Below, in pieces: positions 9,601-33,521 of a stretch of DNA of 64,000 nt. A program made the translations under genes and the position numbers. Every line of letters starts with the position of its first letter. The stretch's first letter is position 1. Below the pieces are notes generated by a model, which saw only the letters and a list, made by a program, of their open reading frames with translations, did no database searches and had not been told where the DNA came from. This DNA is from Candidatus Woesearchaeota archaeon (GTDB lineage: Archaea > Nanobdellota > Nanobdellia > Pacearchaeales > GW2011-AR1), in the NCBI GenBank assembly GCA_964412025.1, contig CAYPLY010000001.1:4797-68796 (forward strand), written 5' to 3'.

Positions 9601-12600
9601 GGCGGAGAGGATATATATGTCTATAATTTTAGTGGGATAACTAATCCTTCTTCAACACATAAAGCTACTAATGGCTCATGTTCTTCATTTGTCTCATTTC
9701 AACCTAATAATCAATATGAGTTTTATAATGAAGGTTATTCTAATCTAGTTTTTATTGATGGATTTGTTACAAAAACTTCCCTTCCATCTGGATTTGGATC
9801 GAATAAACCTTATGAGAAATTTGATTTTAAAATTTTAGAGTCAAAAGATTCCATAAATGAGATAAATCTCTCAATATATGGAAGATCATATTCTAGTTCA
9901 GATTATCAATTTACTGTTTTTGTATATAATTATAGCGGAGGCATCATGGGTGATCCATGGAAGCAAGTATCTTCAATTAATTTAGAGGGTTTTCAATATC
10001 ATAATCTAACCTTTAACAAAACTACCTCCCCAAACATAGATGAGATAATTGGTTCTGATGGAATAATTCAGATTCTTGTAAAAGGTTATTCTGATATTGT
10101 TAGTACTTCTATTGAAGTTGATTTTATTGAAATCAAAGTCAATGGTTCCAGAGGAGCCTCAAATCCACAAACCTCCTCAGTAATTCTTAATGAGGGAGAA
10201 TCTTTCTATCCAAATTGGACAATAAACGTTACATCAACAACCCCCAATCAAGAATACTTGTTGGATGTTTTATTTAATTCAAGCTATGGAAATTCCAATG
10301 TTCTTGATAATAATACAGAAGACAGAAGAATAATATTGAATCCTGGTGCTGGAAGTTCTGAATGTGGTTCTCTAGATATTGAAAATAAATCATGTACCTT
10401 AACAGGAAATATTTCTTCCTTGGAAAATGGTTTTAATATAACAGCTCAAAATATAACTTTAGATTGTGGAGGAAATTACATAATAGGCAGTAATGTTCCA
10501 AATTCAAAAGGTATATTGATAAATAGCTCAAATGTAACAATTACGAATTGTAAGTTTTCTAATTTTCCAATAGATATTTACACTTTAAATGGAAATAATA
10601 TAACTTTGTATAACATAACTGGTGGTAGCGAATATGGTTTGATTGTAAATGGAACAACTAATAGCAATTTCACTAATATTTCTTTTAATAATGTTACAAT
10701 TGCAGGTATTTTAGTTACTAATAATTCACATAATAATACTTTCACAGATATAAACATAAACAGTAGTGCTCATGGAATATATGTTGAAGGGGGTCAGAGT
10801 AATACATTTGATTGTGCTAATGGTTTGATTAATTATTCCCAGGGAGGAGGAGGGTGGTATTTTGGTATTACAAGTAACCAGTTTAATACTACAATAAAGA
10901 ATTGTAATATTTTTAATTCTAATAGAACAACTACGTATTCATATAGCATGGGTATCCAATTAACTGGAAGTTCTAACTCTTCTTTATATAATAATTATGT
11001 TGATTCCGGAAGTTCTGCTGGGATATATGTTACAAACTCTCATTTTAATCTTTTGGTTAATAATTTTGGATCTTCTGTTAATAATCAGGGGTTAAGACTT
11101 GAATCCTCTTATAATAATCTTTTAATCAACAATACGGGGAGTAGTTCTTCAAATGGAGGTATTGGTATTACTGGAAGCACTTCTCATTCAAATACTTTAA
11201 TTAATTGTACAGCTAGAGGAGGCAATACAGGAGGAATGTATTTTACAACCTCTTCTCATGATAATGAGATAATTAATTTAAATGCTTCAGGTTCAAGGGC
11301 TGTACGTATTACAGGTTCTTCTAATAATACTATAAGAGATTGTTTATCTATTTCTGGAACGTCTGCTGATGTATATATATCAAATGATGCGGGAGGAATT
11401 AATAGTTCGTTTGTTAATTGTTCATATGACCTCAGTAAAGAAATATTTGAAGATGCTGTTAATGAGTTGACAAGGAAATGGTATTATATGGCATATGTTA
11501 ACGATAGTTCTGGAAATCCAGTTGAGAACGCAAACATAACTGCTTATAACTCAACAGGAGATTTACAATTTACGGCATTAACAAATTCAACAGGACATAT
11601 TTCAAGACAGGAAGTTATAGAATATTTTAATGATGCAGGAACAAGAAGTTATTATAACAATTATACAATAAACGCAAATAAATCTGGTTATATTAATGAT
11701 AGTAATGAGTTTAATTTTACAATAACGCAGAATAAGGTTGACGATTGGTTTACTTTAACGGAGGAAGCAGCAGGTCCTGCAGATTGTAATACAATTGGTA
11801 ACTCTGGGATTTTAGATACGGATAATGGGGTTTATACTTTAACAGAGAATATCTCATCACAGGGAACATGTTTGACTGTTGCTGCAGCAAATGTAACAAT
11901 TGATTGTAATGGATATTGGATAACTTTTTCAACTGATGGAGCAACAGGCACCAGAGGTATTTACTCCAATCAATTTAATACAACTATAAAAGATTGTAAT
12001 ATAATTGATGGGAACTGGACAACTCCAGATAGTTGGAGAGCAGGAGTTTTCTTTACTATTGGGGCAGATTATGGATTAATACAGAATGTTTCTACTAATG
12101 TCAGTAATTGTCACGGTATTGATATTAATGGGGGTTCTGGTATAAGAGTATATAATTCTACAGGAAGGACAAAAGATTATCATGGAATAATAATATGGAC
12201 TGATGCTTCTAATATTACTCTATTAAACTCTACAGGAATATCGAATACAAGTGTAGGTATTGGAATATATGGTAACAATAATTCTATTTATAATTCTACA
12301 GGGCAGTCTACATATAATAGTTATGGTATCTATTTACCTTCAGTTTCTAATAATCTAATCTCTGGGTGTAATGCTAGTTCTGATTCAAATCATGGAATAT
12401 TTGCCCAGAACAGTACAAATAATACTTTAATTAATAATAATATAACAAGTAATTCTGGGGGCGGGATTGTTATTTATTCTTATTCAACAAATAATACTCT
12501 CATAAATAATAATGTATCAACAAATTCTGGAAGTGCAATTTACATTCTGGCGCTTTCCAATAACAATACTTTACTTAGAAACAATGCTACAACTAATTCA

Positions 12601-15600
12601 GCGAGTGGTCAGGCAATTTATATTTACAATTCTTCATATATGAATTTAACTGAAAACAAAGCAACAAGTACTTCCTCAAGCGGTATTTACATAGAAGAAT
12701 CTTCAGATAATAACACTTTAACATCAAATAACGGAACTAGTTATGCTGCTGATAATTTTGGAATTGTATTGGGAACTTCCAGCAACAACATCCTTACAAA
12801 CAATACTGGTATGAATGTAAATAATGGAATTGGAATCTATATTGCAGTTTCTTCAAATAACAATACTTTGATTAATAATACGGCAATTTCAAATACAGGA
12901 CAGGGGGTTTATATTTATTCTAATTACAATAACACTCTTATTAATCAAAAAGCATACGGTGGTCTGGGGGTCTTTATAATAAATGCAAATTCTACAACTT
13001 TCAGAGATTGTGTTGAGATATCCGGGACAACTTTTGATGTAAATTTATTTTCAACTCCTTTAAGCAAGAACAACACTTTCATAAACTGTTCTTATGATAC
13101 GGAAACTGTTGGAGGGACAGATAACGAGCTAATAAGAAAATGGTATTATCAAGCATATGTTAATGATACTTCAGGAAGTTCAGTTTCAGATGCAAATGTA
13201 ACTTCATACAATGCAACAGGAGTTCTTCAATCTACAGCTCAAACTAATTCTTCTGGTTGGATTTCAAGACAGGAAGTTACAGAATATGTAAATACAGGAG
13301 GAACAAGAAGTTTCTATAATAATTATTCCATATTTGCGAATAAATCAGGATATATTAATGATAGTAATGAGTTTAATTTTACAATAACGCAGAATAAGGT
13401 TAATGACTGGTTTACTTTGGAGGGAGGAGGTCCAGCAGACTGTACAACAATTGGTAACTCAGGAATATTAGATACTGATAATGCATTTTATACCTTGACA
13501 GAGAATATCTCATCGCAGGGAACATGTCTTGATGTTGTAGCTGATAATGTTACAATTGATTGTAATGGATATTGGATAAATTATTCAATAAATGGACAAA
13601 GCGGGGATCATGGTATCTACACTAATCAGTTTAATACTACTATAAGGAACTGTAATATTGTTGATGGGAATTGGACAACTTCAAATACAGGAAGGTCTGG
13701 AATATATTTTAGTGGAGTTATAAACGGAACTATACAAAACAATTCTATTAATATAAGCAACACTCTAGGTATTCTTTTAAATTATAAGTCTTCAAATAAT
13801 ATCTTAATCAACAATAATGTTTACAGTTTTTCTGGAACTGCAATAAGCATTTACAATTCTACTAATAATTTATTGGAAAATAATACCGGGATAAGTAATT
13901 CAAGCTACGGAATCTCTTTACAATATTATGATGAGGGCAATATCTTAATAAATAATACTGGGATAAGTAATACAAGTAATGGAATTTATGTTTATTACTC
14001 GCATACAAATAATCTAACTAATAATAATGCAACAAGCACTTCTAATCATGGGATGCTTCTTGATCATTCAGACAATAATACCTTAACTAATAATAATGGA
14101 ACCAGTTTAGAAGATAGCAATGGAATTTATATATATCCTTATTCAGAGAATAATACCTTAATAGGTAATATTGGAACTTCTTTAGAAGGAGGAGTTGGAA
14201 TATCTCTTTGGTCTTCAGCAAATAATACTTTAATAAATAATACTGGTTTAAGTAATAGTAGCCGTGGAATCTTGCTTGCGTATTCAAATAATGTTACTCT
14301 AACAAATAATACTGGAAGAAGTAATTTTGCCCGTGGAATAGATATTCAATCCTCAAATGAGAGTGCTTTAATAGATAACGAAGGAATAAGTTTAGCAGGA
14401 AGTTACGGAATTATTGTTTATACGTCAAAGGACAATACTTTAATAGATAATATAGGAACAAGTAATACAAGCAACGGAATCTCTATACAATATTCTTCAA
14501 ATATCAATTTAATAAATAATACGGGTATAAACAACTATCAAAGCCAAGGATTCCTTATATATTACTCTAATAATAATACTCTTATAAATAATACTGGAAG
14601 AAATCTTGATTATGGTAATAGAGGACTTTATATTAGTAATTGTTTAAATAACACTGTAATAAATCAAATAGGAACAGGAACCAGAGGTATTGCAATATCT
14701 GGTTCAAATCATACTTTGATTCGAGATTGTATTAATGTTACTGGAAGAACCAACGATGTTTATATTAGTGATGCAAGTACTAATGTAACTTTCATAAATT
14801 GTTCTTATAATTACACTCCGGAATATGTTGGGGCTGGTAGCGAACTAATCAGAAAATGGTATTATCAAGCTTATGTAAATGACAGTTCTGGGGCTGCAGT
14901 TGAAGACGCGAATGTAACTGCATATAATATAACAGCGCAAATTCAATTCACAGAACAGACTAATGGAAGCGGGTGGATCGGAAGGCAGGAAGTTATTGAG
15001 TATATTAATACAGCTGGAACAAGGAGTTATTACAATAATTACACTATAAATGCAACAAATACCACTTTTACAGAAGATCACATATTCAACTTTACAATAA
15101 CACAGAATAAGGTTGACGACGTGTTTACATTGGACGATTCAGGTACAGCAGATTGTAATACAATTGGAAACTCCGGAAAATTGGATGTCGAGGGGCAAAC
15201 ATATACTTTAACAGAAAATATTTCCTCTCAGGGAACATGTTTAACCGTCTCTGCTGAAAATGTTACAATCGATTGTAATGGGTATTGGATAAATCATTCT
15301 ATAAATGGAACAGATGCAATGTATGGGATATATTCAAACCAATTTAATACAACAATAAAGAATTGTAATATTATTGATGGGAATTGGTCAATAGGTACTC
15401 AAAGCAGAAGAGGGATTTATTTGGTTTCGAGTCATAATTCTACTCTATTTAGAAATTTCATAAACGAAAGTAATTCTCAGGGGGTTTATACTAGCGGTTC
15501 GAATTATATGAATATTACCAACAATACGATTTCTTCTTCTTCTAGCCAGGCAATAAGGTTGTCTTCTTCTCATTATAATATTTTGGTTGGAAATAATATT

Positions 15601-17615: not shown

Positions 17616-18539
17616 ATGAAAAGAGGAATTTATGTTTTTGTTCTGTTTTTTGCAATTTTATTAACTTTGTCCATGGTTTCTGCTGGAGGCTTTGATGAAT
17701 TTTGGGATAAGATTACTGGAAGAGCTACTACTCAGGATGTTAGTTTAAGCGTAACAGTAACTGGTGGAAGTGTACCTGTTGTAGTCGCAGTGTATAACGA
17801 GACCGCAACAAGTATGCAAAGTGGTCCAAATGAGGGTCCTGCTCCAACTCATGTTATTGCCGTTTTTAGAGTAAATGATCCTGATGGAATAGGAAATTTA
17901 GATAATTCATCTGCAGTTATGAATTTTTCTTTGGCAGGTGAAACTACAAGGCAGGCAACGTGCACTTTTGTTGCTGGGCAAAGTACTTCAACCCAAGCAA
18001 ATTATACTTGCAACGTTACAATGTGGTGGTATGATGCACCCGGACAATGGACTATTAATACCTATATAGAAGATTTAAGTGGAAATTCTGGATATAATAG
18101 CACTTCAAAAAATGTTTATGTTGGAACAACTGATGGACTTTTGGCAAATCAGACTTCTTTGACTTGGCCTTCTATAAATCCGGGGGCAGCAAATACAGAA
18201 GCGAATGAATTTATGGGATTAAACAATACTGGAAATAGACCTAGATCATTATATGTTAATCCTTCAGATCTTCTTGGAGATGTTAATGAGAATTATGCTT
18301 TGGGTGCAAATAATTTTAGCGTTAAGAATGCAACAGGATGTGAAGGTACTCTTATGGTGAATAGAACCGATACAAATATAACCTCTGTTGCTGTATTTAA
18401 TAGAGGTAATTATACTTTGAATGATGGAACTGCACAGGCAAATCTATATTATTGTCTTGAGACTTCAAACTCAAACTTAATTGCACAGTCATATTCAACC
18501 GGTGCTCTTGGAGCATGGATAATAAAGACAGGAAATTAA
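17616..18539 (+). CDS. secreted protein paralogous to the C-terminal domain of the giant protein
   Basis: Signal peptide MKRGIYVFVLFFAILLTLSMVSAGG. The block SGPNEGPAPTHV...NFSLAGETTR...ANYTCNVTMWWYDAPGQWTIN...LNDGTAQANLYYCLE aligns with giant-protein residues near its C-terminus (SGPNEGPVVTYV...NVTMWWWDAPGTWSIN...LNDGTAQETIYFCLE). Confidence 0.7.
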   Translation: MKRGIYVFVLFFAILLTLSMVSAGGFDEFWDKITGRATTQDVSLSVTVTGGSVPVVVAVYNETATSMQSGPNEGPAPTHVIAVFRVNDPDGIGNLDNSSAVMNFSLAGETTRQATCTFVAGQSTSTQANYTCNVTMWWYDAPGQWTINTYIEDLSGNSGYNSTSKNVYVGTTDGLLANQTSLTWPSINPGAANTEANEFMGLNNTGNRPRSLYVNPSDLLGDVNENYALGANNFSVKNATGCEGTLMVNRTDTNITSVAVFNRGNYTLNDGTAQANLYYCLETSNSNLIAQSYSTGALGAWIIKTGN

Positions 18540-18540
18540 A

Positions 18541-19071
18541 ATGAAAACAATTAAAAAAGTATATCTTAGTATGATAGTTCTCCTAGCAGGAGTTCTTGTC
18601 ATGGGGAATGTTTTAGCTTTTGCAGTTTCTTCAATGTATTGGGAAGAGAATCCGTTATCTATTAATCCAGGAGAGACTCAACAGGCATACATTGTTCTGC
18701 AGAATATGGCAGGAACAGAGAGTGTTAGTGCTAGAGTGGGTATTTTAGAGGGATCTGAGATAGCAACCTTAGATGAACCTGGAAAGATTTACGAGGTTCC
18801 TGTTGGACAGAGGGTCGAGGTTTATTTTACTGTTAATGTTCCAGAAGAAAGTGAGATTGGAGGAGTACAGAACGTTGTTTTTGATGTTTCTACGATTGCT
18901 AGTCAAGAAGAAGGGCCGATGACTTTTGGTTCTGGTGCTCAGAAATTAGTTCCAGTTTTGGTCTCTGCTGAGCCGAGAGAAAAAATCTCTCCTTGGTTAT
19001 ATTATGTTATTGCAGGGATAGTATTGTTTGGGATAGTGGCTTTGGTGGTTCTTAAAAGTAAGAGAAAATAA
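18541..19071 (+). CDS. small membrane-anchored surface protein (N-terminal signal/TM, C-terminal TM with KSKRK tail)
   Basis: Its start lies 2 nt after the stop of the previous gene. Hydrophobic N-terminus; C-terminal segment ISPWLYYVIAGIVLFGIVALVVLKSKRK. Confidence 0.55.
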   Translation: MKTIKKVYLSMIVLLAGVLVMGNVLAFAVSSMYWEENPLSINPGETQQAYIVLQNMAGTESVSARVGILEGSEIATLDEPGKIYEVPVGQRVEVYFTVNVPEESEIGGVQNVVFDVSTIASQEEGPMTFGSGAQKLVPVLVSAEPREKISPWLYYVIAGIVLFGIVALVVLKSKRK

Positions 19072-19108
19072 ATAGAATAACTTTTTAATACTGCTTTGCT
19101 TTATCTAA

Positions 19109-20815
19109 TTGATGAAAAAGGGATTGATGTTTTGGGGTATTTTTTTATCTCTATTTATATTATTTATAGGATTTGTATTGGCTGATGCAGATATAACCGG
19201 ACAAACCATAACGGGGGAAGCTGTTACAGGAAAGGCATTGCAATCTTCTTTGGCATTAAATATCACTGTTACCCTCCCTATTCCAGTTATAACCATATTA
19301 AGTCCTAAAAATGGAACTTATTTAACTAATGAATCAATTTTAATAAATTATTCTTCGGTTAATGCAGATAATGTTTGGTATAGTTTGGATTCGGGAAGCA
19401 ATATAACTTTGAATTCTCCCGTTTATATTAATGTTTCTCAAGGCCAACACACATTGTATATTTATGGAAACAATAGTTATGATTCTGTAACAGAAATGGT
19501 TTCTTTTGTTTCAAATTCAAGTTTATTCATAATTTTATATAGTGAGTATAATGGTTCCACAAGAGGAAATTCTACAGGTTTTATCAAATATACCTATGAG
19601 GATTTACAAGGTTTAAGTAGTATTGTCTTGGAGAACACACTCTATGGAAAAATAAGGTTTAATCAGGCAATAAATATAACTAATGATAGGATTAATTCAG
19701 ATAATTTATTGGATTTAGATTCCAATTCACAGGTTTCTTCAAATAGAATAGAGTTAAATGTTACAGAACTTCCTAATTTTAACACTTCTGCAACTTTATG
19801 GTTATATGGATTGTCTTTTACAAACCCCAGGATATTAAGAGAGGGGGTAATTTGTCCTACAGATGAATGTATTAAGGAGAGTTATTCTGGAGGGATATTA
19901 AGGTTTTATGTAAATCATCTTGGTATTTATTCTGCTGAAGAGACTCCTTATACTCCTCCTTCAACTGGGGGGGGAGGAGGTGGTGGAGGTTCTTCTTCTA
20001 CAGAAGTGTATGATGATACTCCTATTATCGATATAGTTGAGGATAACATTACTTTAATTTCTGATGAAATAAAAGTATCTTTAAATCCAGGGGAAACTAT
20101 TTTCCAGGATTTTTATTTGATGAATGCTTATGATGGAATTGTTGAGGCAGATATAAGTTTTGTAGGTATTGAAAATTTTGTTAGCGTAAGTGAAACAAAT
20201 ATTATTCTTCCTTACCAGGAGATAAAAGCATTAAAACTTAATTTTTCAATTCCAAAAGATACACCTCCAGATAATTATGTTGGGAAGATATTGGTAAAAT
20301 CAAATGGAGTTATTTATGAATCTGTCATTTCTATAGATGTTCAATCTGTTGAGTCTCTCTTTGATGTTCGTTTAGAGATGGACGAGGAGAAACTTCCTGC
20401 AACTCCTGGAAGTTATATTTGGTTTAAGACCTTAATTTATAATTTGGGTGGTGATGAGGACGTTGAGGCATATTTAGAATATTCTATTAAGGATAGTTCG
20501 GGAGGGGTAATCTTTGAGGGAGAGGATCTTGTGTTGGTAGGAGATTATCTTGAAAAGGAGGGAAAAATTAAGCTTCCAAGGGATATTTCAGATGGAAAAT
20601 ACGTTCTCTCAACAAAGATAGGTTATGAAGGAAAGACTGCTGTTACAAGCGTTAGCTTTGATATTCAAAGAAGAAAATTACCCAAAATATGGAAGATTTT
20701 AATCCCTATACTTGTAATATTTTTATTATTGTTTATATTATGGTTTATTGGTAAGAAGGATGAGAAAAAGAGAAAAAGAGAACAAGAGAAAAAGCACGAG
20801 TCTTTGAATTATTAA
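19109..20815 (+). CDS. surface glycoprotein-like protein with C-terminal TM anchor
   Basis: Signal peptide MMKKGLMFWGIFLSLFILFIGFVLA. Many N-x-S/T sequons. A poly-Gly/Ser linker PPSTGGGGGGGGSSS. C-terminal TM (ILIPILVIFLLLFILWFIG) followed by a K/R/E-rich tail. Confidence 0.65.
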   Translation: MMKKGLMFWGIFLSLFILFIGFVLADADITGQTITGEAVTGKALQSSLALNITVTLPIPVITILSPKNGTYLTNESILINYSSVNADNVWYSLDSGSNITLNSPVYINVSQGQHTLYIYGNNSYDSVTEMVSFVSNSSLFIILYSEYNGSTRGNSTGFIKYTYEDLQGLSSIVLENTLYGKIRFNQAINITNDRINSDNLLDLDSNSQVSSNRIELNVTELPNFNTSATLWLYGLSFTNPRILREGVICPTDECIKESYSGGILRFYVNHLGIYSAEETPYTPPSTGGGGGGGGSSSTEVYDDTPIIDIVEDNITLISDEIKVSLNPGETIFQDFYLMNAYDGIVEADISFVGIENFVSVSETNIILPYQEIKALKLNFSIPKDTPPDNYVGKILVKSNGVIYESVISIDVQSVESLFDVRLEMDEEKLPATPGSYIWFKTLIYNLGGDEDVEAYLEYSIKDSSGGVIFEGEDLVLVGDYLEKEGKIKLPRDISDGKYVLSTKIGYEGKTAVTSVSFDIQRRKLPKIWKILIPILVIFLLLFILWFIGKKDEKKRKREQEKKHESLNY

Positions 20816-20909: not shown

Positions 20910-20999
20910 TGCCCCGGACAGGATTTGAACCTGCGACCCCTAACTTTCTTCTCTATTTATTAGAAGGCTAGTGCTCTATCCAGGCTGAGCTACCAGGGC
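20910..20999 (-). tRNA. tRNA-Arg (TCT) with an intron of about 15 nt in the anticodon loop
   Basis: Acceptor GCCCTGG/CCGGGGC; D-arm GCTC-AGCCTGGATA-GAGC; anticodon stem CTAGC...GTTAG. The 22 nt between the stem halves are CTTCTA[ATAAATAGAGAAGAA]A. T-arm GCAGG-TTCAAAT-CCTGT. The intron position is assumed to be the canonical 37/38 site. Confidence 0.55.
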
Positions 21000-24149: not shown

Positions 24150-24170
24150 CATGATTTTTAAATTCCATAT

Positions 24171-24254
24171 GCGGGGGTGCCGGAGTGGTCAAACGGGTCA
24201 GATTTAGGCTCTGATAGCTCAGTGCTTACCTAGGTTCGAATCCTAGCCCTCGCA
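24171..24254 (+). tRNA. tRNA-Leu (TAG), type II with long variable arm
   Basis: Acceptor GCGGGGG/CCCTCGC with discriminator A; anticodon stem TCAGA/TCTGA; loop TTTAGGC; long variable arm TAGCTCAGTGCTTACC; T-arm TAGG-TTCGAAT-CCTA. Confidence 0.8.
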
Positions 24255-24258
24255 TTTC

Positions 24259-27200
24259 TTAAATACACTTTGCTCTCCAAACATGAGTTATATACCAAGT
24301 AGTTCCAAATGGATTTGTGTATGTCTTTGAACTAATATCTACAGACTGCCCTCCATCATGAATAATTGTTATCCCTGGACTTGTTGATGCATAATTAGAG
24401 AAGATAGTTATGTGCTGATATTCTCTGTCATAACTTCCACTTCCCCCCCATATAATTAAATCCCCCTCTTTCAATCCGGTTTTCCATTCTGATTCTGGTA
24501 TCTCGGTGAAATCCGCTTTATCAAAAATATCTATTAGTTCCATTATAGCATCTCTATAAGGTATTGTATCGGATGTGCAGCTTTGAAATTGTGGGAGGGT
24601 ATCTGCTTCGATTAATACATTAGATACAAAAGTAGCGCAAACATTATCATAAACAATTGCTCCGTTTTCAACACGGGTTGTATCTTCTCCAAGCTTATTT
24701 TTTGCTATTGATAGTATTCTTTTGCCCGTTTGTGAATTATCACAACTTGAAGGAGCCTCCCCATTGTATAATCTAACTAATTCAAAATATTTCTCTTTAA
24801 CATTTCTAACATAGTTTGAGTCTCCGGTTGAACAGTCAGTATTCCATCCATTATATCCTCTTAAAGCATATTCCCATCCACTATACCTTTCAATAGGGTT
24901 AACACAAGTATAAATTTTACTTGAGGAACTATATGCTTCCTTTAATACTTGTGCTCCTATATTGATATTTAATTGTTCATTGGATAATAAAATAGATTTG
25001 CATTGGGTAATATCTGAGGGTAAACCTTTAGTTCCACAATGTATTGTGTTGATTTGCATTAATCCATTATCTCCCCCAGAAGTTACTGATCTACAAGATG
25101 ATTCTTGGACCATTATTGCAAGCAATAACAATTCATCCGGGATATTGCTACTGGCTGAACTAGCAGCACTTGTAATCCATTTAGCGTACTCATCACAATT
25201 TTCTCCACAAGAACATCTTAAATTAGTGTTTAAAACTCCCAGAGTAGACAATGCTTTCATTAAATTAGTCAGTTTTGTTAAATCTCTTCTTTGAAGCTGA
25301 GAATCAAGTGTATTTGTGTATGTTGTGGGAGTTTCTCCTTCTCCAAATGCTTCCGACATTTCTTGTATTTCTTCTGAGGAGTAATCAAACAGAATAGCAG
25401 CCCCCTTATATAAATCACTTTCTTTTAACATCGTTATAATATTTTTTTGCTCTTCGTTAAATCCAGGAGCAACATTTGACATACTTTGCCAAACACCTCC
25501 TCCCTCGAACATATCATCAATTTGCCAGAACCAATCTCCATTCTCATATTTGTAGTAAAGTTTTTTCATTGGTTCATAATCAACATCCTTAAATTTAACA
25601 GTGAATAGTCCTTCTTCATCTAGAGTCGTTGTTTCTAAAGTTTCATCCGAAAGTTCGGCGTTTTTATCTCCAATTATCTTGTTTATAAGTATTTTTAGTC
25701 CTCCAAGATAATCTCCATCTTTATCTTGTAGTGCAATTATAAGTTCTTCATTTTCTTCAGAAACATGATTTGTATATTCGGTTCCTAAACTATCTACATC
25801 ATACCATGGCACTGTTGTGCTACATGTAAATGCAAATTGCCATTTAGAGTTATAATATCTATAACACCTGTCATCTAACGTTAAAGGATTTTTATCATTG
25901 AAATGGAAATAGGGTGAAATATATTTTGCATTAAATTGTGCTTGAAGATTTTCGGGAGTGGAGGTTGTTGTCCCTCCTGTACTTGTTCCTGTAGATGTTC
26001 CTCCTGTTGTGGTTCCACTAACAATTGCTGCTTCCATTAAATTAACCGAATATTCTCCAATTGCAAGAGCAGAATATAACTGTCCTCTCATTAAAAATAA
26101 CTTTGCTTTTTGGTTGTTAAAGAATATTTTATCCCATAGTTCATCTATCATTTCTATTTTCTTTTTAACATATGTCTCATCTTTTATATCTTCTATAGCT
26201 TCCTTGAATTCTTTGGTTGTAAGATAATCTCCTTCATTGAACAGGACATTTTCATAGTTTGTTGCAGTTTGGCTTAGTATGTTATCTTCTATATTCAATG
26301 AGTGGACTATTTCTTTAACCTTATCTCTATCAAGCCAACACTTTACTTTTGTATCTCCACATACTCCCACAGGAGTCCATCTTGCTTCTTCTGGATCTTC
26401 CCATGATTCATCTGTTCCTTTTCCAGGATTGTCTGTTGCACACACTCTTATTATTCCGTTTTCGTATATCTTTGGGTCTAAAATTTCCTCTGCTGCGTTT
26501 TGAATATTAGGGTTTAACAAACTGTATAAACTTGCTGTTCCAGAAATACATTCCTCTTCTGTTTTTACCTGGGTTGTCGTTTGTTCTTGTATATATAATT
26601 CGCTCATGTAATTAACTGCAAAAGATGTTGAAACCTGCTCGAAATCACAGTTTTCTCTTCCGTTTACTGTAATGCATAAATATTTGAATCCGGATGGTGC
26701 TGTAAAGTCTGTACTGTTTGTTGCATATTCTCCTGCAGGAATATATCCTGATGCAACCTTTCTATCAAACATAGTATCTTGATAGTAAGAGCTTCCTGTT
26801 CCTTGTTTTAATGCAACCTGATAATAAACTCCAGTGTCCTTTCCTGCATATATATGGTATGAAACTTTATAATGGGAAGTAGGAGGGTTTGTTGCTGTGG
26901 TGTAGGGTATCTCCTGGAATTTTCCTGTGTATTGTGTTGGAGAGTCTGGGTCGGTTAAGCTATCAAGGAAATCTCCGCTTCCAGGGAAGATTACTGAAGG
27001 GAAGCTTTTGCAAACTTCAGCACCTACTTCATCTGTTGAACGTAGTTTGAATGCTTTCCAGGAGTTTTCAGCATAGAATCCTTTGAAAAATTCTATTGAA
27101 TCCTGGGCTTTTGAAAGTGCATCCTTTACCCCCAGATATTCTCCTCCTCCACGAGGGTTTTCTTTGAATATTGCACTTAATATCTTGGGTATGGTCAATT

Positions 27201-30200
27201 TTGCAAGAGGAAGGGCCTGTCTCCAGAAGAAATCACAAATATATATGCTATATACTTCATCACAAATTCCTACCGTTTCTCCAGTTTCTATATTTTGTTG
27301 AAGACAATCTCTGTAAGATTTTTGTACGCTTAAAAATCCATCCAATCCTGTTTGTACTCCTGATACACATATTGGAACAACTATTCCTTCTTTTGCATTA
27401 GGAAGACATAAAGCTATACTTCCTATTACTCCTGATTGTATAACATCCTGAACTGGATATGTTCCTCCCAAGTCGCATCTTGAGCTTGGACATACAACAG
27501 GATCACATACATTGAATAGTATTTGACATTCTTTAGGGGACATGAAATCCTGACATTGTACTGCAGGGGTTTGTACTGCAGGACTTCCAACATCATAGGA
27601 CACTCCTCCTATTCTAACTCTTCTTGCTCCACTTGCATATGCTCTTTGTGCTTCTTCAATTGATTGTCTTGCTTTTTCAACCATTGCAGAAGCTTCGTTT
27701 TCACTTAATCCTAAAACCTGATTTAATGCCTGTCCCGTTCTCAGGTTAATCATTTCACATTTATCATCTCTTGCCTCACTGAAAAAATCTTCCAACCCGT
27801 CCTGTCCAACATTACAAATCCAGAAAACTTCTATTCTTCCAGAATCGTCATAAGCCTTTAGAGTTTCAGAAGTAAGCATTGGTTTTGTTGCTGCATACCA
27901 TCCAGTTGCTTTATCAAGAGGAACTATTGCGGGATTTCCCTTATTTGGTTCTTCTTCATAGTATTTTAATTCAGCATTTTTATAGGTGTTTTTCAAGGAG
28001 TTTTTATCGTATCTTTGGAAGACTATATTGAAAGGGTTTTCCTGGACAACCCCCTCTTCTTTACCATTTTCTCGATACAAGGAAATTGTTTTTGTTGTTT
28101 CATCAATCTTGTAAGTTTGTTCCACTACCCCTTTATCTCCATCAAGTTTGTAAGTTAATAAGAATGTTCCAAATCCTCTTTCATCTTTTACAACATAAAC
28201 TGGTTTGTTTCTGTCTATTGAGGCACCAGTATAACCATTCTTAACATATTCTGTGTTTGCAAAAGTCTCTATATAGTAAACTGGAATTTCTGTTGTTTTT
28301 ATCCCTTTTAGGTTCCATACTCCGCTACTGGATAACCCACTTGTTTCTTTTAGAGAGATTTGAGAAGAATAAGTTTGGGAGTTAACCTGAACATCTCTTA
28401 GAACAGTATATAGTCTTTTTGTTGCTGTTTCTTTTAATTCATCACTGGAACTAGGATCGTTTAATATTTCAGAGTATAACCCTATTTCTTTAAGTTGGTC
28501 TGTGCTGTATACTCCTTCCTTAAATCCCCCCTCTGTAAGGATGTTGTTTATGTTTTGGAATTCAATTTTTTTTGTTTCTGATATTTCTTCGTTGTTTATT
28601 GCTTGTTGAATTGAACTTTCACTCAAAGTTTCTCGTGTTTTTTCAGAATAATCATTTATCCATCCTTCTTGGGTATTTGTTCCTTCTTCTGCTTTTTTTA
28701 TTCTTTGATTTTCAAATTGAATGTATTTGTAAGTTTCTTCAACTTGGGAATCTATTTCATCTGCATTTTTGTAAAAACAAGAATCTAGAGAAGGATATTC
28801 TCTCGGATTATCTCTGACTAGATTTTCACATTTTTCAGTCCATCCATTTTCTCCCTGCATTACTTTTTGCCTTGCAATGGATTTTCCTCCCATATTTGAG
28901 AGCATATTTTTGAATGTCAAGAAACCAGCTGTTCCAGTACATGCATATTTCCATACTTTAACAACTCCTGCTAAAGTGTTGGAGACTTTTTCTATGCTTT
29001 CTATTTGTTTGTTTAAGGTTTCAATTTTGCTTGCAGCTTTTTCAGGAGTTAGAGGGAAACTTCTTTTTTCAATTCCTACTTTGAAATTAAAATCTACCTC
29101 GCTATATTCAAAGTTCGTGTTTCCTCTTATTGCGACCTTTGCAGATTTTTCTAAGTTTATTTTCTTTAATGTGAAAACATATCCCCCGTATGGGAATGCT
29201 TTATCTATTTCAAGTTTCTTTGTGTCGCTTGCAAATCCTTTTTGCCAGGTGCTTTCATCAGCCACATAAATGTATACATCTGCAGATTCTGTTTCTAGAG
29301 AACTTAACATAATATATTCTTCTCTTTCAAGTTCATTTTCTCTAAATCCTTCCAGGTTTATCTTTTTGTCTTTTTCAAGTTCAAATGTTCTTGTTACCCC
29401 ATTTGGTCCTCTAACATAAAGCTCTACTCCATAATCTTCAAACTGAGGGTCATCTATTCCCAGAAGAGAAATTTCCTTAACTCTTCCATTAATTGAGACT
29501 TCCATTGTTGAAAGTGTATCGCTTGAGATTCTATAATCGTCCTCACAAATTGATAAAACAGTTGGATAAAGAGTAGACTCTTCATATCTTTCTTTAAATT
29601 CCTCACATAATTCCAATGCTGTTCTTTTTTTGTTTAATTTTATTGACAACGCAATTGCTTCATATAATGCTCTTTCTCCATACGTTTCAATAGAGCTCTC
29701 GGAATCTTTTTCTCCGGAGAAACTTGATCTAACAGTTTGGAAGTCATTCATTGCATTTTCGTAATATTGATTAAAAAGCTCATCAGGAGAATCGGTGTAT
29801 GTTGCTCTCTCAACAATAAGCTTGTTTTCTTTAGGGATTATTCTTGCTCCTATAATATGTTCGAAGAAATCGTCTAAGTTGGAAGGAGGATCGAAATTGC
29901 TATTTGTTGATAGAGTATAATTAGAAGGACAATTTAGATAATTATTGCATCCTGTTTCTGAATAAAAAGCTCCGTATTTTTTTAGAAGACTTGTTTTTGC
30001 AACTATATCGTCTGCACCCAATATAAGTATTGATTGTCCAAGGTCTGATTTTAATTCTTCAACAATTAAACCTGTCTTTTCATTTCCTTGTTTTATGGTG
30101 TATATAGTTCTTCCAAATAGTGAGAATATGGAAGTATCTCTTTCTAAGCTATATTCGTTTTCTTCTATTTTTAAAATCCCCTGGTCTGCTCCTTCTCCAA

Positions 30201-31686
30201 ATCCAACTATTGAGACTTCTTTTCCTTTAACGTCTTTGGGTAGGGAAACCCCTCCTGTTTTTGGATGCTCAAAAGGTATGAAGTAGAAATCTTCTCCAAC
30301 GACCGCCCACTTTCCTATAGTCATAGTAGCATGAGTAAATCCAGTTACTCCAGATACAATTGCATCATAAACTCCTGCTCCTGTTTTACCAGATTGTAAG
30401 GTGTTTGCGTATGAGTTTACAGAAGCAAGGTCGTTTGCATCGAGTCTTTCTTTGTGTTCCGGAGCAGCGAATAAATATACATATAAATCCTTGGATAATT
30501 CACTTCCGTCCCAAGAACCCACATATCCCAAATAAACTGATTTTTGCCCATCGGGAGTTTTGTATAACCAATCTCCCACCTCATACTCTCCTACTTCTCC
30601 ATCTATCTTCAGTTTAACTCTTGGAGATATTCCAAGAGATACTGTCTGAGGTTTATCTCCATTGCAATGTACTTTTACGCTTTGATAAAGTCCTTCTTTA
30701 TTTATGTCTTTTACATAACATTTATTATCAAGGAATTTTTCATTTTTTGCAACTTCAATGTAATCAGAACCTACCTTTAATTTTACTCTCGTATCTGGAT
30801 TAACTAAATCTTGTAATGTTACAGATAGTGTTGCAAGACAGGGGCTAAATCCGGGGAGATACAATTCATCGGATTTTTCTCCTTCATTTAAATGGAAGCT
30901 TGCATATTTTGATTTGCTGTAGGTTCTTCCTTCTCTTGAAAAAGTCCCAGAGCTTACTATTGTATCGTCGGAGTACATTACAATTTGGGCTCCTTCATTA
31001 TCTACAGATAATGCTCTTAGGTATCCTCTTCCTTCCCAAAAGCTGTATTGGATATACTTTTCATTCCATTCTTCATCACTCATTTCTTTAAGGTAAAAAT
31101 CTGTGTTTCCAACTCCAAATGCATTTTTTATGTCATATCTTACTTTTGCTGTAAGATTTCCCTGGACATATTCTGGCATTTGAGATTCGTTTGGTTGTTT
31201 TTTTATGGTTATTACAACATAACCTAAATCACTTAATATTGGGGAAGTTAACACCCCTTCTTGATTTGAAGTTCCAAGTGCAGCTTTAGAAGGGAAATAT
31301 CCAACACTTCTAACTTGCTCGGAAAGTTCTTGTTGTGAGGGAGCAAAGCTCAGATAATCTATTGCTTCTATTTCTATTAAGGGATTAATTTGAGTTGCTC
31401 CTAATTGGCAATAAACCTGAACATCTTGTTCTTCCAACAAATCGCTTCTTACAACGGCAGGAGTGCATCCAAAAGGAACTATTTGTATTAATAAGTCAGT
31501 TCCTCCTTCTTCACACATAGATTTATCAAACTGTAGGCTACTTCCACTTCCAAATGCTCCTATTCCTATTGTGTTTGAATATTGCATTCCGCTTGTTACT
31601 GCACGAGTATATGCTGAAACAGATGAAATTAGTATTAATCCTACAAGTAGTATTAGCATTCCAATTAAGTGTCTTTTATTTATCAT
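24259..31686 (-). CDS. giant (2475 aa) secreted Cys-rich protein with C-terminal lytic transglycosylase (SLT/GH23-like) and CHAP amidase/peptidase domains
   Basis: Sec-type signal MINKRHLIGMLILLVGLILISSVSA. C-terminal region LLLAIMVQESSCRSV...GLMQIN...YALRGYNGW (SLT catalytic Glu, GLMQ and Y-x-GW motifs). It is followed by NVCATFVSNV ... GDLIIWGG ... YQHITIF (CHAP Cys/His). A Thr/Gly linker TTGGTSTGTSTGGTTTSTP precedes the C-terminal module. Confidence 0.8.
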   Translation of the reverse strand: MINKRHLIGMLILLVGLILISSVSAYTRAVTSGMQYSNTIGIGAFGSGSSLQFDKSMCEEGGTDLLIQIVPFGCTPAVVRSDLLEEQDVQVYCQLGATQINPLIEIEAIDYLSFAPSQQELSEQVRSVGYFPSKAALGTSNQEGVLTSPILSDLGYVVITIKKQPNESQMPEYVQGNLTAKVRYDIKNAFGVGNTDFYLKEMSDEEWNEKYIQYSFWEGRGYLRALSVDNEGAQIVMYSDDTIVSSGTFSREGRTYSKSKYASFHLNEGEKSDELYLPGFSPCLATLSVTLQDLVNPDTRVKLKVGSDYIEVAKNEKFLDNKCYVKDINKEGLYQSVKVHCNGDKPQTVSLGISPRVKLKIDGEVGEYEVGDWLYKTPDGQKSVYLGYVGSWDGSELSKDLYVYLFAAPEHKERLDANDLASVNSYANTLQSGKTGAGVYDAIVSGVTGFTHATMTIGKWAVVGEDFYFIPFEHPKTGGVSLPKDVKGKEVSIVGFGEGADQGILKIEENEYSLERDTSIFSLFGRTIYTIKQGNEKTGLIVEELKSDLGQSILILGADDIVAKTSLLKKYGAFYSETGCNNYLNCPSNYTLSTNSNFDPPSNLDDFFEHIIGARIIPKENKLIVERATYTDSPDELFNQYYENAMNDFQTVRSSFSGEKDSESSIETYGERALYEAIALSIKLNKKRTALELCEEFKERYEESTLYPTVLSICEDDYRISSDTLSTMEVSINGRVKEISLLGIDDPQFEDYGVELYVRGPNGVTRTFELEKDKKINLEGFRENELEREEYIMLSSLETESADVYIYVADESTWQKGFASDTKKLEIDKAFPYGGYVFTLKKINLEKSAKVAIRGNTNFEYSEVDFNFKVGIEKRSFPLTPEKAASKIETLNKQIESIEKVSNTLAGVVKVWKYACTGTAGFLTFKNMLSNMGGKSIARQKVMQGENGWTEKCENLVRDNPREYPSLDSCFYKNADEIDSQVEETYKYIQFENQRIKKAEEGTNTQEGWINDYSEKTRETLSESSIQQAINNEEISETKKIEFQNINNILTEGGFKEGVYSTDQLKEIGLYSEILNDPSSSDELKETATKRLYTVLRDVQVNSQTYSSQISLKETSGLSSSGVWNLKGIKTTEIPVYYIETFANTEYVKNGYTGASIDRNKPVYVVKDERGFGTFLLTYKLDGDKGVVEQTYKIDETTKTISLYRENGKEEGVVQENPFNIVFQRYDKNSLKNTYKNAELKYYEEEPNKGNPAIVPLDKATGWYAATKPMLTSETLKAYDDSGRIEVFWICNVGQDGLEDFFSEARDDKCEMINLRTGQALNQVLGLSENEASAMVEKARQSIEEAQRAYASGARRVRIGGVSYDVGSPAVQTPAVQCQDFMSPKECQILFNVCDPVVCPSSRCDLGGTYPVQDVIQSGVIGSIALCLPNAKEGIVVPICVSGVQTGLDGFLSVQKSYRDCLQQNIETGETVGICDEVYSIYICDFFWRQALPLAKLTIPKILSAIFKENPRGGGEYLGVKDALSKAQDSIEFFKGFYAENSWKAFKLRSTDEVGAEVCKSFPSVIFPGSGDFLDSLTDPDSPTQYTGKFQEIPYTTATNPPTSHYKVSYHIYAGKDTGVYYQVALKQGTGSSYYQDTMFDRKVASGYIPAGEYATNSTDFTAPSGFKYLCITVNGRENCDFEQVSTSFAVNYMSELYIQEQTTTQVKTEEECISGTASLYSLLNPNIQNAAEEILDPKIYENGIIRVCATDNPGKGTDESWEDPEEARWTPVGVCGDTKVKCWLDRDKVKEIVHSLNIEDNILSQTATNYENVLFNEGDYLTTKEFKEAIEDIKDETYVKKKIEMIDELWDKIFFNNQKAKLFLMRGQLYSALAIGEYSVNLMEAAIVSGTTTGGTSTGTSTGGTTTSTPENLQAQFNAKYISPYFHFNDKNPLTLDDRCYRYYNSKWQFAFTCSTTVPWYDVDSLGTEYTNHVSEENEELIIALQDKDGDYLGGLKILINKIIGDKNAELSDETLETTTLDEEGLFTVKFKDVDYEPMKKLYYKYENGDWFWQIDDMFEGGGVWQSMSNVAPGFNEEQKNIITMLKESDLYKGAAILFDYSSEEIQEMSEAFGEGETPTTYTNTLDSQLQRRDLTKLTNLMKALSTLGVLNTNLRCSCGENCDEYAKWITSAASSASSNIPDELLLLAIMVQESSCRSVTSGGDNGLMQINTIHCGTKGLPSDITQCKSILLSNEQLNINIGAQVLKEAYSSSSKIYTCVNPIERYSGWEYALRGYNGWNTDCSTGDSNYVRNVKEKYFELVRLYNGEAPSSCDNSQTGKRILSIAKNKLGEDTTRVENGAIVYDNVCATFVSNVLIEADTLPQFQSCTSDTIPYRDAIMELIDIFDKADFTEIPESEWKTGLKEGDLIIWGGSGSYDREYQHITIFSNYASTSPGITIIHDGGQSVDISSKTYTNPFGTTWYITHVWRAKCI

Positions 31687-33521
31687 CTAAGGTCTACGTC
31701 TAGTGTTTTAGTTTCAAATAAAATATAATTTGCTTGTATCTGTTCGAATGATGAAGGATTTGGCATACTTTCTGCATTAATATAAATTGTTTTTGAGTTT
31801 TGTAATTCATATTCGGATATGGAGTAATTTTGTTTTCCTCCTCCTGCAAGTGCACTTGAAATCATTTGTTGAGGGTAATCTACATTGAAGCATTGTTTCT
31901 CTGTTAAGCCTAATAATGAACCCAGCCCTCCTCTTGGGACATCTATACATTGTTCCATTGTTGTTTCTCCAAGACTTAATGAGGAATTTTTATATATTTG
32001 AACCTCTATCTCATAATCTCCTTCACTTAATTCTACCTTCTTCTCCTCAGGATACATTATCGTCTTTGAGAAATCGTCCGATATAAATGTGATTGATGCC
32101 TGCCCGTTATATTCCCTTCTATCAACATATAGATTTATTCCTATTTCATGTATTTTATTAAGGATTATCGATACACTTGTTTTATCAAGGGTGGTTGTGT
32201 GCATTAATTTCTCATCTCTATATCCCTCTGATCTTACATAAATATATCCATTAACACACTCAGGGAATCTGTCGTATAGTACCCCTCCTTCAGATTCTCC
32301 TATTAGACAACTTGTTCCAAGACATTGGTAAGATACGTTTCCATCTATCTTTTTTAAGTCATTTCCATATATACTTACAGTTACTAAAGAAGTTTTATCG
32401 TCGCAAAGTTCAGAGAATTCTCCTCCAATTGCCGAACCTTCTAGAGGCTTTCTTGGTTTATTTCCCAGTATTACTATTGCCAATGGGAATTGGAAAGTTT
32501 CTTCTCCAGACATAACTTGTACTAAAACAGGGTGTTTTAGATTATATACAAAGTGGTATGTAACGTAACAGAATCCTAATACTCCCAATCCGGCTTGAGT
32601 TCCTACCGGCTTAGCTATAAGCATGTTTCCTTCAGACGGAAGTACCTCAAAGCTATAAGGCCAATCTTTGGAATTTAGGAACTTTACATTATGGTCTGAG
32701 GGGATATCTTCAATTTCAACCTCAAAATAATCATTTTTATTTGAGCTTCCTTTTAATGCCATAGTATTTATTTCAATTGCTTCCTGTAAATCATTAAATA
32801 TGCTATTTGCTTCCCAAACTTTTGGAGAGCAAGTTAACTCAACTCCATCTACAGGAGCATACATTCTTAAAATATCAATGGTGTAATTTTCTAAAAATAG
32901 ATTTTCTTGCTCCTCTTCGTATACTTTAAGGGCAGATTCATAGAGAGAACCTAATTTGGAATCAATTATAATTTTATGCTCTCTTACAATATAGGTTTCA
33001 TCTTCTTTGGTTATAGAAAAATCCATTTTCAAGTTAAGAGTTATTTGTTTATCGTTTATTACTATTTCTACATCGGGTTCTTCCATAGTTATTTCATATC
33101 CCTGATTGTAATAATCTTCAAAATAACATCCTCTTGATTTGGATTCTATGAATTTTGATAAATCTTTTTCCATATCATTTATAGAAGGTACTTGTTCTTT
33201 GGGTACATTGTTTGCGGATACATAATACCAATAAGGAATTGAACTTCCTACGAAGTCAAGTTGAGAAGAGAAAGGCATATATTCGGAGCCTTCTTCGTAT
33301 TCAGGAAGATAAATATATCCTCCCTGACTTTCTAATAATTGAATTCCAACTTTAGCATCTTCTTCAATACAGGAAGTAAACGTTTTGTAAATCGGGTTCA
33401 TTTCTGAAGGTATTCTCCCCGGGAAAATGTCCTTCCAAAAAACAATAAACAACACAGCCATTGCAACTATTACAATTGCAAGAATAATAAAAATAGTAAC
33501 CTGCCCTCTTTTAAACCTCAT
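31683..33521 (-). CDS. 612-aa protein with class III (archaeal type IV pilin-like) signal peptide
   Basis: N-terminus MRFKRGQVTIFIILAIVIVAMAVLFIVFW. That is basic residues, then G, then Q, then a roughly 21-residue hydrophobic helix, which is the prepilin-peptidase substrate pattern. Its stop overlaps the start of the downstream giant gene by 4 nt (operon). Confidence 0.6.
   Translation of the reverse strand: MRFKRGQVTIFIILAIVIVAMAVLFIVFWKDIFPGRIPSEMNPIYKTFTSCIEEDAKVGIQLLESQGGYIYLPEYEEGSEYMPFSSQLDFVGSSIPYWYYVSANNVPKEQVPSINDMEKDLSKFIESKSRGCYFEDYYNQGYEITMEEPDVEIVINDKQITLNLKMDFSITKEDETYIVREHKIIIDSKLGSLYESALKVYEEEQENLFLENYTIDILRMYAPVDGVELTCSPKVWEANSIFNDLQEAIEINTMALKGSSNKNDYFEVEIEDIPSDHNVKFLNSKDWPYSFEVLPSEGNMLIAKPVGTQAGLGVLGFCYVTYHFVYNLKHPVLVQVMSGEETFQFPLAIVILGNKPRKPLEGSAIGGEFSELCDDKTSLVTVSIYGNDLKKIDGNVSYQCLGTSCLIGESEGGVLYDRFPECVNGYIYVRSEGYRDEKLMHTTTLDKTSVSIILNKIHEIGINLYVDRREYNGQASITFISDDFSKTIMYPEEKKVELSEGDYEIEVQIYKNSSLSLGETTMEQCIDVPRGGLGSLLGLTEKQCFNVDYPQQMISSALAGGGKQNYSISEYELQNSKTIYINAESMPNPSSFEQIQANYILFETKTLDVDLR

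Follow-up and report, generated by a model that had tools for sequence, protein, structure and literature searches.

An intact giant gene in a DPANN archaeal chromosome

To our knowledge, archaea have no murein of their own. What use, then, would an archaeon have for a giant, probably exported protein whose C terminus resembles a pair of murein hydrolases? This question is raised by a gene on the minus strand of the window, the whole stretch of 64,000 nucleotides that we analyzed. The features of this gene and of the gene adjoining it are as follows, in window positions.

24259..31686, minus strand: giant gene, an intact open reading frame of 2475 aa plus stop codon
31612..31686, minus strand: predicted Sec-type signal peptide, residues 1-25 (MINKRHLIGMLILLVGLILISSVSA/YT; the slash marks the inferred cleavage site)
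27862..31611, minus strand: conserved N-terminal scaffold without known domain, residues 26-1275
26047..27861, minus strand: most conserved core with an invariant-Cys cluster, residues 1276-1880
25267..26046, minus strand: Thr/Gly/Ser linker and two ~80-aa YYKY..W.W modules
24787..25218, minus strand: CxCGxxCxxYA Cys motif and GH23/SLT lytic transglycosylase domain, residues 2157-2300
25102-25104, minus strand: codon of the catalytic Glu2195
24262..24756, minus strand: NlpC/P60-like papain-fold cysteine amidase/peptidase domain, residues 2311-2475
24637-24639, 24412-24414, and 24355-24357, minus strand: codons of Cys2350, His2425, and Asp2444, the putative triad
31683..33521, minus strand: partner gene, 612 aa, whose stop overlaps the giant-gene start by 4 nt

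The concern that the giant gene could be a chimera was not borne out. An identical copy of the 2475-aa protein is present in a public protein collection, relatives of at least 90% identity were found in NCBI, JGI, ENA, and Logan assemblies (at least 4 independent ones) on contigs of up to 240 kb, and another MAG encodes a syntenic 2474-aa ortholog. There was no compositional break at the tail either, GC3 being 0.224 in the tail and 0.223 in the remainder of the gene. We therefore rejected an assembly chimera and, because GC3 is the same in both parts, a recent horizontal transfer of the tail.

The archaeal host was confirmed by genes for TFB, S8e, S3Ae, and an L10P insertion domain nearby. The chromosome surrounding the giant gene is that of a Woesearchaeota-type DPANN archaeon, with ribosomal proteins, tRNAs, and aminoacyl-tRNA synthetases as further neighbors and with synteny kept at a related locus (L001). 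The related genomic loci were DPANN MAGs in 13 of 13 cases, and annotation of the neighborhood revealed no T4SS or mobile-element genes around the giant gene. Given the archaeal housekeeping neighbors and the conserved synteny, we rejected the idea that the locus came from a mobile element or a virus.

The partner gene adjoins the giant gene upstream at related loci as well (L001, L002, L004, L008, L009, L011, and L013), with 47 to 90% identity. The N terminus of its product (MRFKRG/QVTIFIILAIVIV) resembles, in its sequence, a class III (pilin-like) signal, and the motif [KR]GQVT[IL]FII is kept across orthologs. No significant Pfam or PHROG match was obtained for the 612-aa protein, with nothing credible in Pfam even at E<=1; the PHROGs search gave two matches, both insignificant. 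NCBIfam yielded nothing relevant. The giant protein itself is predicted to be exported. Its signal peptide is its sole hydrophobic stretch, and orthologs repeat the pattern of a basic n-region, a hydrophobic core, and a small-x-small site.

The tail combines a lytic transglycosylase domain with an NlpC/P60-like domain

We analyzed the two halves of the tail separately. The SLT motifs named in the original prediction are all present: QESSC at residues 2194-2198 (window 25093-25107), GLMQI at residues 2208-2212, and YSGWE and YNGWN within residues 2268-2282. The module starts at about residue 2157 (window 25218), slightly past 25200, the end given in that prediction. The SLT match clearly exceeds what chance would give: PF01464 scored 28.9 bits on the tail (gathering cutoff 21.3; E 8.9e-7) and 25.5 bits on the complete protein. 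Searched with the single tail sequence, the PDB sequences yielded no match; the family profile matched MltC (E 5.9e-13) and Slt70 (E 1.2e-6), and these alignments bring the catalytic Glu into register. Indeed, E2195 aligns with the catalytic Glu of MltC (Q in the E217Q mutant) and with E478 of Slt70, so that the proposed check of the Glu against the active-site column came out positive. Among 76 SLT modules of the family, the E-S-like motif was found in 72, the GLMQ-like motif in 69, and the YNG-like motif in 73, and the modeled domain is predicted to adopt a goose-lysozyme-like helical fold.

The domain thus shares motifs (E-S, GLMQ, and YNG), the aligned catalytic Glu, and the predicted fold with bacterial family-1 lytic transglycosylases such as MltC, Slt70, MltE, MltF, and EtgA. 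Unlike these, it occurs in an archaeal host without murein of its own and is preceded by extra Cys residues and a CxCGxxC motif. Archaeal SLT domains were reportedly described by Rinke et al. in 2013, possibly with an activity assay.

The second domain had been read as CHAP. The residues behind this reading hold, since the Cys of NVCATF (residues 2348-2353) and the His of YQHITIF (residues 2423-2429) are present and are invariant in 16 homologs, most of which also have the Asp/Glu, but the family is a different one. PF05257 scored 15.7 bits (cutoff 26; E 0.02), any CHAP match was seen in only 5 of the 16 homologs (best E 1e-4), and the nearest fold neighbors of the domain were not CHAP structures. 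We therefore rejected CHAP in the strict sense; what the domain has in common with CHAP amidases/peptidases (PF05257, e.g., LysK and LysGH15) is a papain-like fold, the Cys/His dyad, and the weak Pfam match. The predicted fold matches solved NlpC/P60 enzymes, and the His region aligns with a catalytic His region (Acd24020, 7cfl). In the tail model, the triad occupies the secondary-structure positions canonical for such enzymes: C210 lies at the N terminus of a helix (209-220), H285 starts a strand (285-292), and D304 ends the next strand (299-304).

The domain scored below every Pfam cutoff, including that of NLPC_P60 (PF00877; 12.2 bits against 23), and its homologs gave weak, subthreshold matches to Amidase_6, CHAP, Amidase_5, DUF1287, NLPC_P60, and TseH. 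Because it belongs to a divergent branch below the PF00877 cutoff, we assign it as NlpC/P60-like (C40) at the superfamily level only. Degenerate copies of the domain exist in the family, for example, a second copy without the Cys in P0045.

Could the tail be a catalytically inactive wall-binding adhesin or the whole arrangement an artifact of annotation or assembly? The subthreshold Pfam score and the degenerate copies would fit such a reading, but this protein and its relatives retain the catalytic Glu, Cys, and His, and the independent assemblies, the synteny in another MAG, and the uniform composition argue against an artifact. We regard this explanation as very improbable.

Taken as a whole, the tail gave a confident model (pLDDT 90.6), whose best whole-tail Foldseek matches, the CwlT-type structures 4hpe and 4fdy (E 1.3e-4), cover both domains. 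As in CwlT, the glycosidase domain precedes the NlpC/P60 domain in one chain. The sequence analysis thus supports the dual module originally proposed, namely, a predicted glycan cutter and a predicted peptide-stem cutter in a giant archaeal protein that is predicted to be exported. In Gram-positive conjugation systems, hydrolases of the CwlT type pair both activities and open a local hole in the peptidoglycan.

The likeness to CwlT and to Tn916 Orf14-type hydrolases of Gram-positive conjugative elements lies in this two-domain architecture. However, identity is just 14 to 17%, the relative orientation of the domains differs (TM ~0.3), and the archaeal glycosidase half is nearer to true SLTs (MltC and MltF) than to the CwlT lysozyme. 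Moreover, the archaeal module is joined to a scaffold of 2,100 residues and, unlike CwlT, is encoded outside any T4SS or conjugative-element context. A tblastn search of the tail against phage and plasmid collections found no close homolog.

Variable tails on a conserved scaffold

Word-indexed searches detected few relatives, the tail query returning 2 proteins and an NlpC-like profile 1, whereas an exhaustive search of cluster representatives revealed a DPANN family of 925 clusters at E<1e-30. On a common scaffold, its members carry tails of the SLT type, of two NlpC/P60-like types, and of the Amidase_3 (146.9 bits), VanY (D-Ala-D-Ala carboxypeptidase), and OmpA-like types. DUF2272 was found as well, and two sister tails lie near their Pfam cutoffs, the OmpA-like one just above and a glucosaminidase-like one just below. 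The cassettes are sometimes duplicated or reordered along the family. On sequence grounds, the C-terminal tails are swappable cassettes on a conserved scaffold.

An SLT and/or NlpC/P60-like module was present in 107 of 136 full-length members, while the other 29 had none of the three recognized hydrolase modules; ankyrin or DUF1615 tails occur in some family members. The family is therefore not exclusively murein directed. In architecture alone, a conserved N-terminal part of ~1,880 aa with interchangeable C-terminal enzymatic cassettes is reminiscent of polymorphic toxin/effector systems. In contrast to these, the family shows no immunity gene, and none would be expected; where such systems carry nucleases or deaminases, its cassettes are wall hydrolases.

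The range of tails also bears on whether the target could be pseudomurein or another wall polymer of a methanogen host. Papain-fold cysteine peptidases can cut isopeptide bonds, and the endoisopeptidases that act on pseudomurein are cysteine enzymes too, which speaks for this substrate. However, GH23 enzymes act on beta-1,4-linked MurNAc-GlcNAc, and this specificity does not fit pseudomurein, which contains beta-1,3-linked N-acetyltalosaminuronic acid and is lysozyme resistant. The sister tails do not fit either, since VanY recognizes D-Ala-D-Ala and Amidase_3 recognizes MurNAc-L-Ala, both of which are absent from pseudomurein. An archaeal wall thus seems a most improbable target. The case for bacterial murein is, on the contrary, strengthened by the glycan-plus-peptide pair, which is complete in many family members, and by the amidase, VanY, and OmpA-like sister tails.

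The part upstream of the tail had been described as Cys-rich and unlike anything recognizable. The first description was an overstatement, as there are 46 Cys among 2475 residues (1.9%) and one real cluster, at residues 1291-1484. The second stands insofar as no Pfam family was found, with no credible match for the scaffold even at E<=1. Yet ~1,880 of these residues belong to a scaffold that is conserved throughout a very large DPANN family and are therefore not unique to this protein: three subsegments of the N-terminal scaffold (residues 26-1275) match 141 to 156 of 164 family sequences, and the core (residues 1276-1880) shows ~50% identity family-wide, with 46 invariant columns, 16 of them Cys. 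The AlphaFold model of the core was poor (pLDDT 67.8 overall and <50 in the Cys region), and Foldseek returned only generic beta-sandwiches (ApaG, Asf1, and Ig-like), all at E>1e-3, which we disregarded. As the scaffold gave no informative fold, its role as a delivery or binding apparatus is a conjecture.

Relation to published giant SLT proteins

Giant "murein-like lytic transglycosylase" proteins of Woesearchaeota and Pacearchaeota are known as fam00969 from Castelle et al. 2021 (PMC8204110), who also cite Rinke 2013 and Castelle 2015. Compared by description, our protein corresponds to this family of ~2,000- to 3,000-aa exported SLT proteins, and the agreement extends to the lineage, the size (up to ~3,000 aa), the predicted extracellular location, the SLT/GH23 domain, and the role proposed at bacterial walls. 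Attack on or binding of bacterial walls by the SLT-bearing family has already been proposed (PMC8204110; Vigneron 2022, PMC9723730), and both the existence of giant SLT proteins and this reading are also found in PMC10936187. Since the proteins and the wall-attack idea were published between 2013 and 2022, the original prediction overestimated its novelty. The published descriptions, however, cover the SLT domain only, without the NlpC/P60-like enzyme or tail exchange, and the 1,880-aa scaffold and the upstream pilin-like partner are unmentioned there. New here are the second enzyme, the modularity of the cassettes, and the partner gene, and new biology could still lie in this gene and in the scaffold.

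A proposed role at the bacterial wall

We know of no demonstration by cultivation that archaea live on bacteria, and the genomic case that some DPANN archaea do so relies chiefly on giant SLT proteins. On balance, we favor as fairly probable that the giant gene encodes a Sec-exported surface or extracellular protein in which a scaffold of ~1,880 residues carries a variable, murein-cutting C-terminal warhead cassette for use on the wall of a neighboring bacterium. The GH23 half would cleave the MurNAc-GlcNAc backbone, and the NlpC/P60-type Cys/His half would cleave peptide stems or cross-links. Because the archaeon makes no murein, the substrate would most likely be the wall of a neighboring bacterium. 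The giant protein would breach or grip this wall locally during a cell-cell interaction, be it episymbiotic contact or predation, and would probably do so jointly with its co-transcribed 612-aa pilin-like partner.

The same catalytic domains would also serve a digestive exoenzyme that solubilizes the peptidoglycan of dead bacteria or debris, without host contact, and thereby provides an archaeon of little biosynthetic capacity with amino sugars and amino acids. Such scavenging would be in line with the auxotrophy of DPANN archaea and with the published proposal that Pacearchaeota draw amino acids from peptidoglycan necromass (PMC11537232). Nevertheless, a 1,880-residue scaffold and a co-transcribed pilin-like partner are hard to justify for a simple digestive enzyme, and related DPANN archaea already have small SLT proteins that stand alone (P0002 and L005). 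We therefore consider nutrient scavenging unlikely.

We think it improbable, more so than scavenging, that the protein is an antibacterial weapon that kills competitors, analogous to the horizontally acquired lysozymes of other non-bacterial organisms. Nothing separates this reading from the contact-dependent model, but a free protein of 270 kDa would be kept from its substrate by the outer membrane of Gram-negative bacteria, and the fact that nearly all of the most reduced Woese- and Pacearchaeota have the family (PMC8204110) suggests a core lifestyle function and not an accessory weapon.

Extending the contact-dependent model, we suggest, tentatively and with considerable doubt, that the scaffold and the pilin-like partner may form a cross-domain, wall-breaching surface apparatus specific to Woese- and Pacearchaeota, with interchangeable murein-cutting cassettes that are presented in the manner of polymorphic effectors and tuned to the wall chemistry of the bacterial host. 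If so, these archaea would be bound to bacteria as obligate episymbionts or predators, and their set of tails would predict the host type.

Finally, a local jackhmmer search placed the two copies of the YYKY..W.W module, which has no Pfam match, at residues 1916-2015 and 2026-2106 and found the module in ~60% of the full-length family members. Our guess is that it binds the cell wall.

Genomic setting of the giant gene

The window has a GC content of about 32%, and its gene neighbors identify an archaeal host (TFB, S8e, S3Ae, L1, L10P with insertion domain, SRP54/FtsY, several aminoacyl-tRNA synthetases, and tRNAs). The genes discussed here are the following.

24259..31686, minus strand: giant gene, ORF of 2475 aa
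23097-24032: TFB gene, flanking the giant gene
31683..33521: partner ORF of 612 aa, overlapping the start of the giant gene by 4 nt

Using the tail as query, we fetched 13 related genomic loci, all from DPANN MAGs labeled Woesearchaeota, Nanoarchaeota, Pacearchaeota, or "Diapherotrites." One Woesearchaeota MAG (L001) carries a syntenic 2474-aa orthologue with 92% identity in the tail, and an identical giant protein is present in a public collection. Assembly chimerism, which the original prediction had named as a possible flaw, is ruled out: variants of at least 90% identity were independently assembled from NCBI, JGI, ENA, and Logan data, on contigs of up to 240 kb, and GC3 is equal in the tail (0.224) and the remainder of the gene (0.223). 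That the protein is an artefact, or else an inactive adhesin, seems very improbable to us.

A tRNA-Leu(TAG) gene (24170-24255, plus strand) has its 3' end 4 nt from the stop codon of the giant gene, on the opposite strand; in L001, the giant gene likewise stops a short distance from the TFB gene.

The tail pairs two predicted murein hydrolases

All motifs quoted in the original prediction were located in the giant protein.

Residues 2194-2198: QESSC, SLT motif
Residues 2208-2212: GLMQI, SLT motif
Residues 2268-2282: YSGWE and YNGWN, SLT motifs
Residues 2348-2353: NVCATF, Cys motif of the second domain
Residues 2423-2429: YQHITIF, His motif of the second domain

The predicted SLT domain was borne out by Pfam PF01464, which scored 28.9 bits on the tail (gathering cutoff, 21.3). 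A profile from 29 family tails matched MltC (E 5.9e-13), Slt70 (1.2e-6), EtgA, and MltE among PDB sequences, with the glutamate of QES aligned to their catalytic Glu; the entry for the E217Q mutant of MltC has its glutamine in that column, and RQESAWNP of Slt70 lines up in the same way. Across family SLT modules, the motifs are E-S-like in 72 of 76, GLMQ-like in 69, and YNG-like in 73.

The second domain had been assigned to CHAP on account of its Cys and His. Both residues stood (C2350 and H2425 are invariant in 16/16 second-domain sequences, and D2444, the acidic residue of the HDGG/GDPG motif, is nearly invariant in the same set), but the CHAP profile gave only a weak match (15.7 bits; cutoff, 26). 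DUF1287 and NLPC_P60 scored below CHAP, and the weak matches of 16 homologues were spread among Amidase_6, CHAP, Amidase_5, DUF1287, NLPC_P60, and TseH. In the AlphaFold model, C2350 lies at a helix N terminus, H2425 opens a strand, and D2444 ends the next one, which we take to be the usual papain-like active-site layout. NlpC/P60-like is a better name for this enzyme than CHAP.

The AlphaFold model of the whole tail (residues 2141-2475, alignment of 29 rows) was confident (pLDDT 90.6), and Foldseek returned three significant matches across it, namely, two chains of 4hpe and 4fdy (E 1.3e-4). Both entries are presumably CwlT-type bifunctional hydrolases combining a lysozyme-like domain with NlpC/P60 (Xu et al. 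2014). That work is cited in PMC9324163. Judged from the SLT profile, the Cys/His conservation, the tail model, and the Foldseek matches, the tail is predicted to be a genuine pair of a glycan cutter and a peptide cutter.

A conserved scaffold with exchangeable tails

The sole hydrophobic segment of the giant protein, its N-terminal 25 residues (…SSVSA/YT), looks like a Sec signal peptide, and the pattern recurs in orthologues. The description of the upstream part as Cys-rich fits only locally, since Cys makes up 1.9% of the protein and is densely clustered in one place only (residues 1291-1484).

When the final 1,200 residues served as query in an exhaustive search, 1,202 cluster representatives matched at E<=1e-3, and 925 did so at E<=1e-30; almost all measure 2,000 to 3,700 aa. 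In a local search of 164 family sequences, each of four N-terminal segments (residues 1-1880) had matches in 141 to 160, compared with 78 for the SLT segment and 17 for the Cys-peptidase segment. The core (residues 1276-1880) shows ~50% identity family-wide, with 46 invariant columns, 16 of them Cys. The scaffold has no family match in Pfam, NCBIfam, or PHROG; its model was poor, and the fold search gave no informative match.

Between scaffold and enzymes lies a module that is also common, often in many repeats, in other tails. It is found in ~60% of family members and has no Pfam match.

25369-25941, minus strand: two copies (residues 1916-2015 and 2026-2106) of the ~80-aa YYKY..W.W…L..K.Y..G module

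Among 136 full-length members, 70 carry SLT, 18 the NlpC/P60-like module, and 36 a divergent Cys/His domain of FDWNG type (for example, residues 2121-2335 of the homologue P0005), while 29 have none of the three. The SLT-then-NlpC order of our protein occurs in four members and the reverse in three. The FDWNG module, absent from the window protein and without a Pfam match, is homologous to the NlpC/P60-like module (hhalign probability 93.6%, E 2e-7), and the alignment pairs their catalytic Cys and His columns. The SLT module of some members is located in the N-terminal third. The same scaffold also bears Amidase_3 (146.9 bits), VanY, DUF2272, DUF1615, and ankyrin-repeat tails, together with an OmpA-like match just over and a glucosaminidase-like match just under the cutoff.

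Several of these cassettes recognize features specific to bacterial murein (MurNAc-L-Ala and D-Ala-D-Ala), which is the strongest, if indirect, argument for bacterial murein as the target. Pseudomurein, the other wall considered in the original prediction, is hardly credible as a target.

Small proteins of 369 to 376 aa from Pacearchaeota-type genomes (L005, 2812-3939, and P0002) contain the same CxCGxxCxxYA and SLT module behind a hydrophobic N terminus resembling a membrane anchor; the module therefore exists both free-standing and fused in DPANN. In another locus (L012, 5432-10864), an 1811-aa protein lacks the conserved core but has at its end an SLT-like module and, after it, a VanY D-Ala-D-Ala carboxypeptidase domain with a strong match (111 bits); it is a different giant scaffold with the same kind of murein-directed tail.

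Partner gene and proposed role

In seven loci, the giant gene is directly preceded, on its upstream side, by an orthologue of the partner (47 to 90% identity). The N terminus of the partner is conserved, with [KR]G-QVT[IL]FII ahead of a hydrophobic stretch, and has the look of a class III (prepilin-like) signal of archaea. Domain-family searches including Pfam and PHROG gave no significant match for the partner.

Beyond the observed domain identities, residue conservation, distribution, and synteny, we infer export, catalytic activity, a bacterial target, and a role for the giant protein. We somewhat favor a model in which the exported protein would present its CwlT-like enzyme pair, and the pair would locally open or grip bacterial peptidoglycan on contact with a neighboring or host bacterium; the partner may assist display. 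Scavenging of peptidoglycan from necromass is an unlikely use of the pair, and antibacterial competition is less likely still.

The idea of giant SLT proteins directed against bacterial walls is already published: Castelle et al. proposed that the proteins bind or degrade bacterial walls and that the archaea are episymbionts of bacteria, pointing to earlier sightings (Rinke 2013, Castelle 2015) (PMC8204110), Vigneron et al. 2022 used the term "large lytic murein transglycosylase" and made the case for predatory Woesearchaeota (PMC9723730), and later surveys restate this view (PMC10936187, PMC11537232). These accounts describe the SLT domain only, and no paper connecting DPANN with NlpC/P60 or CHAP was among the results listed by a broader full-text search. 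Within this limited corpus there therefore appears to be no description of the second enzyme, of the CwlT-like pairing, of the cassette exchange, or of the partner gene. The giant protein with its tail is a well-supported feature; it belongs to a known kind of protein and carries one catalytic domain more. The scaffold and the partner gene, like the cassette logic, merit experimental follow-up.

Other features of the window

Several further features were observed.

3628-17565, plus strand: second giant ORF, 4645 aa, with 12 right-handed beta-helix/NosD stretches, a disaggregatase repeat, and a Gly-rich domain
17616-20815: ORFs of 307, 176, and 568 aa, without Pfam match, syntenic in L001 and L011 (a further related locus)
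20910-20999, minus strand: 90-nt tRNA by Rfam (53.4 bits), adjoining tRNA-Cys and not reported by ARAGORN
47636-50131, plus strand: leucyl-tRNA synthetase, 831 aa, with PF13603 (LeuRS editing domain, 226 bits)
51270-53018, minus strand: alanyl-tRNA synthetase of only 582 aa, with catalytic core and SAD, stopping right after SAD

The 4645-aa ORF and the three ORFs following it may form another surface-protein module, and the 90-nt tRNA is probably an intron-containing archaeal tRNA. PF13603 and the protein length, which we associate with bacterial-type LeuRS, hint at a bacterial-type enzyme in this archaeon, and the AlaRS may be truncated or split.
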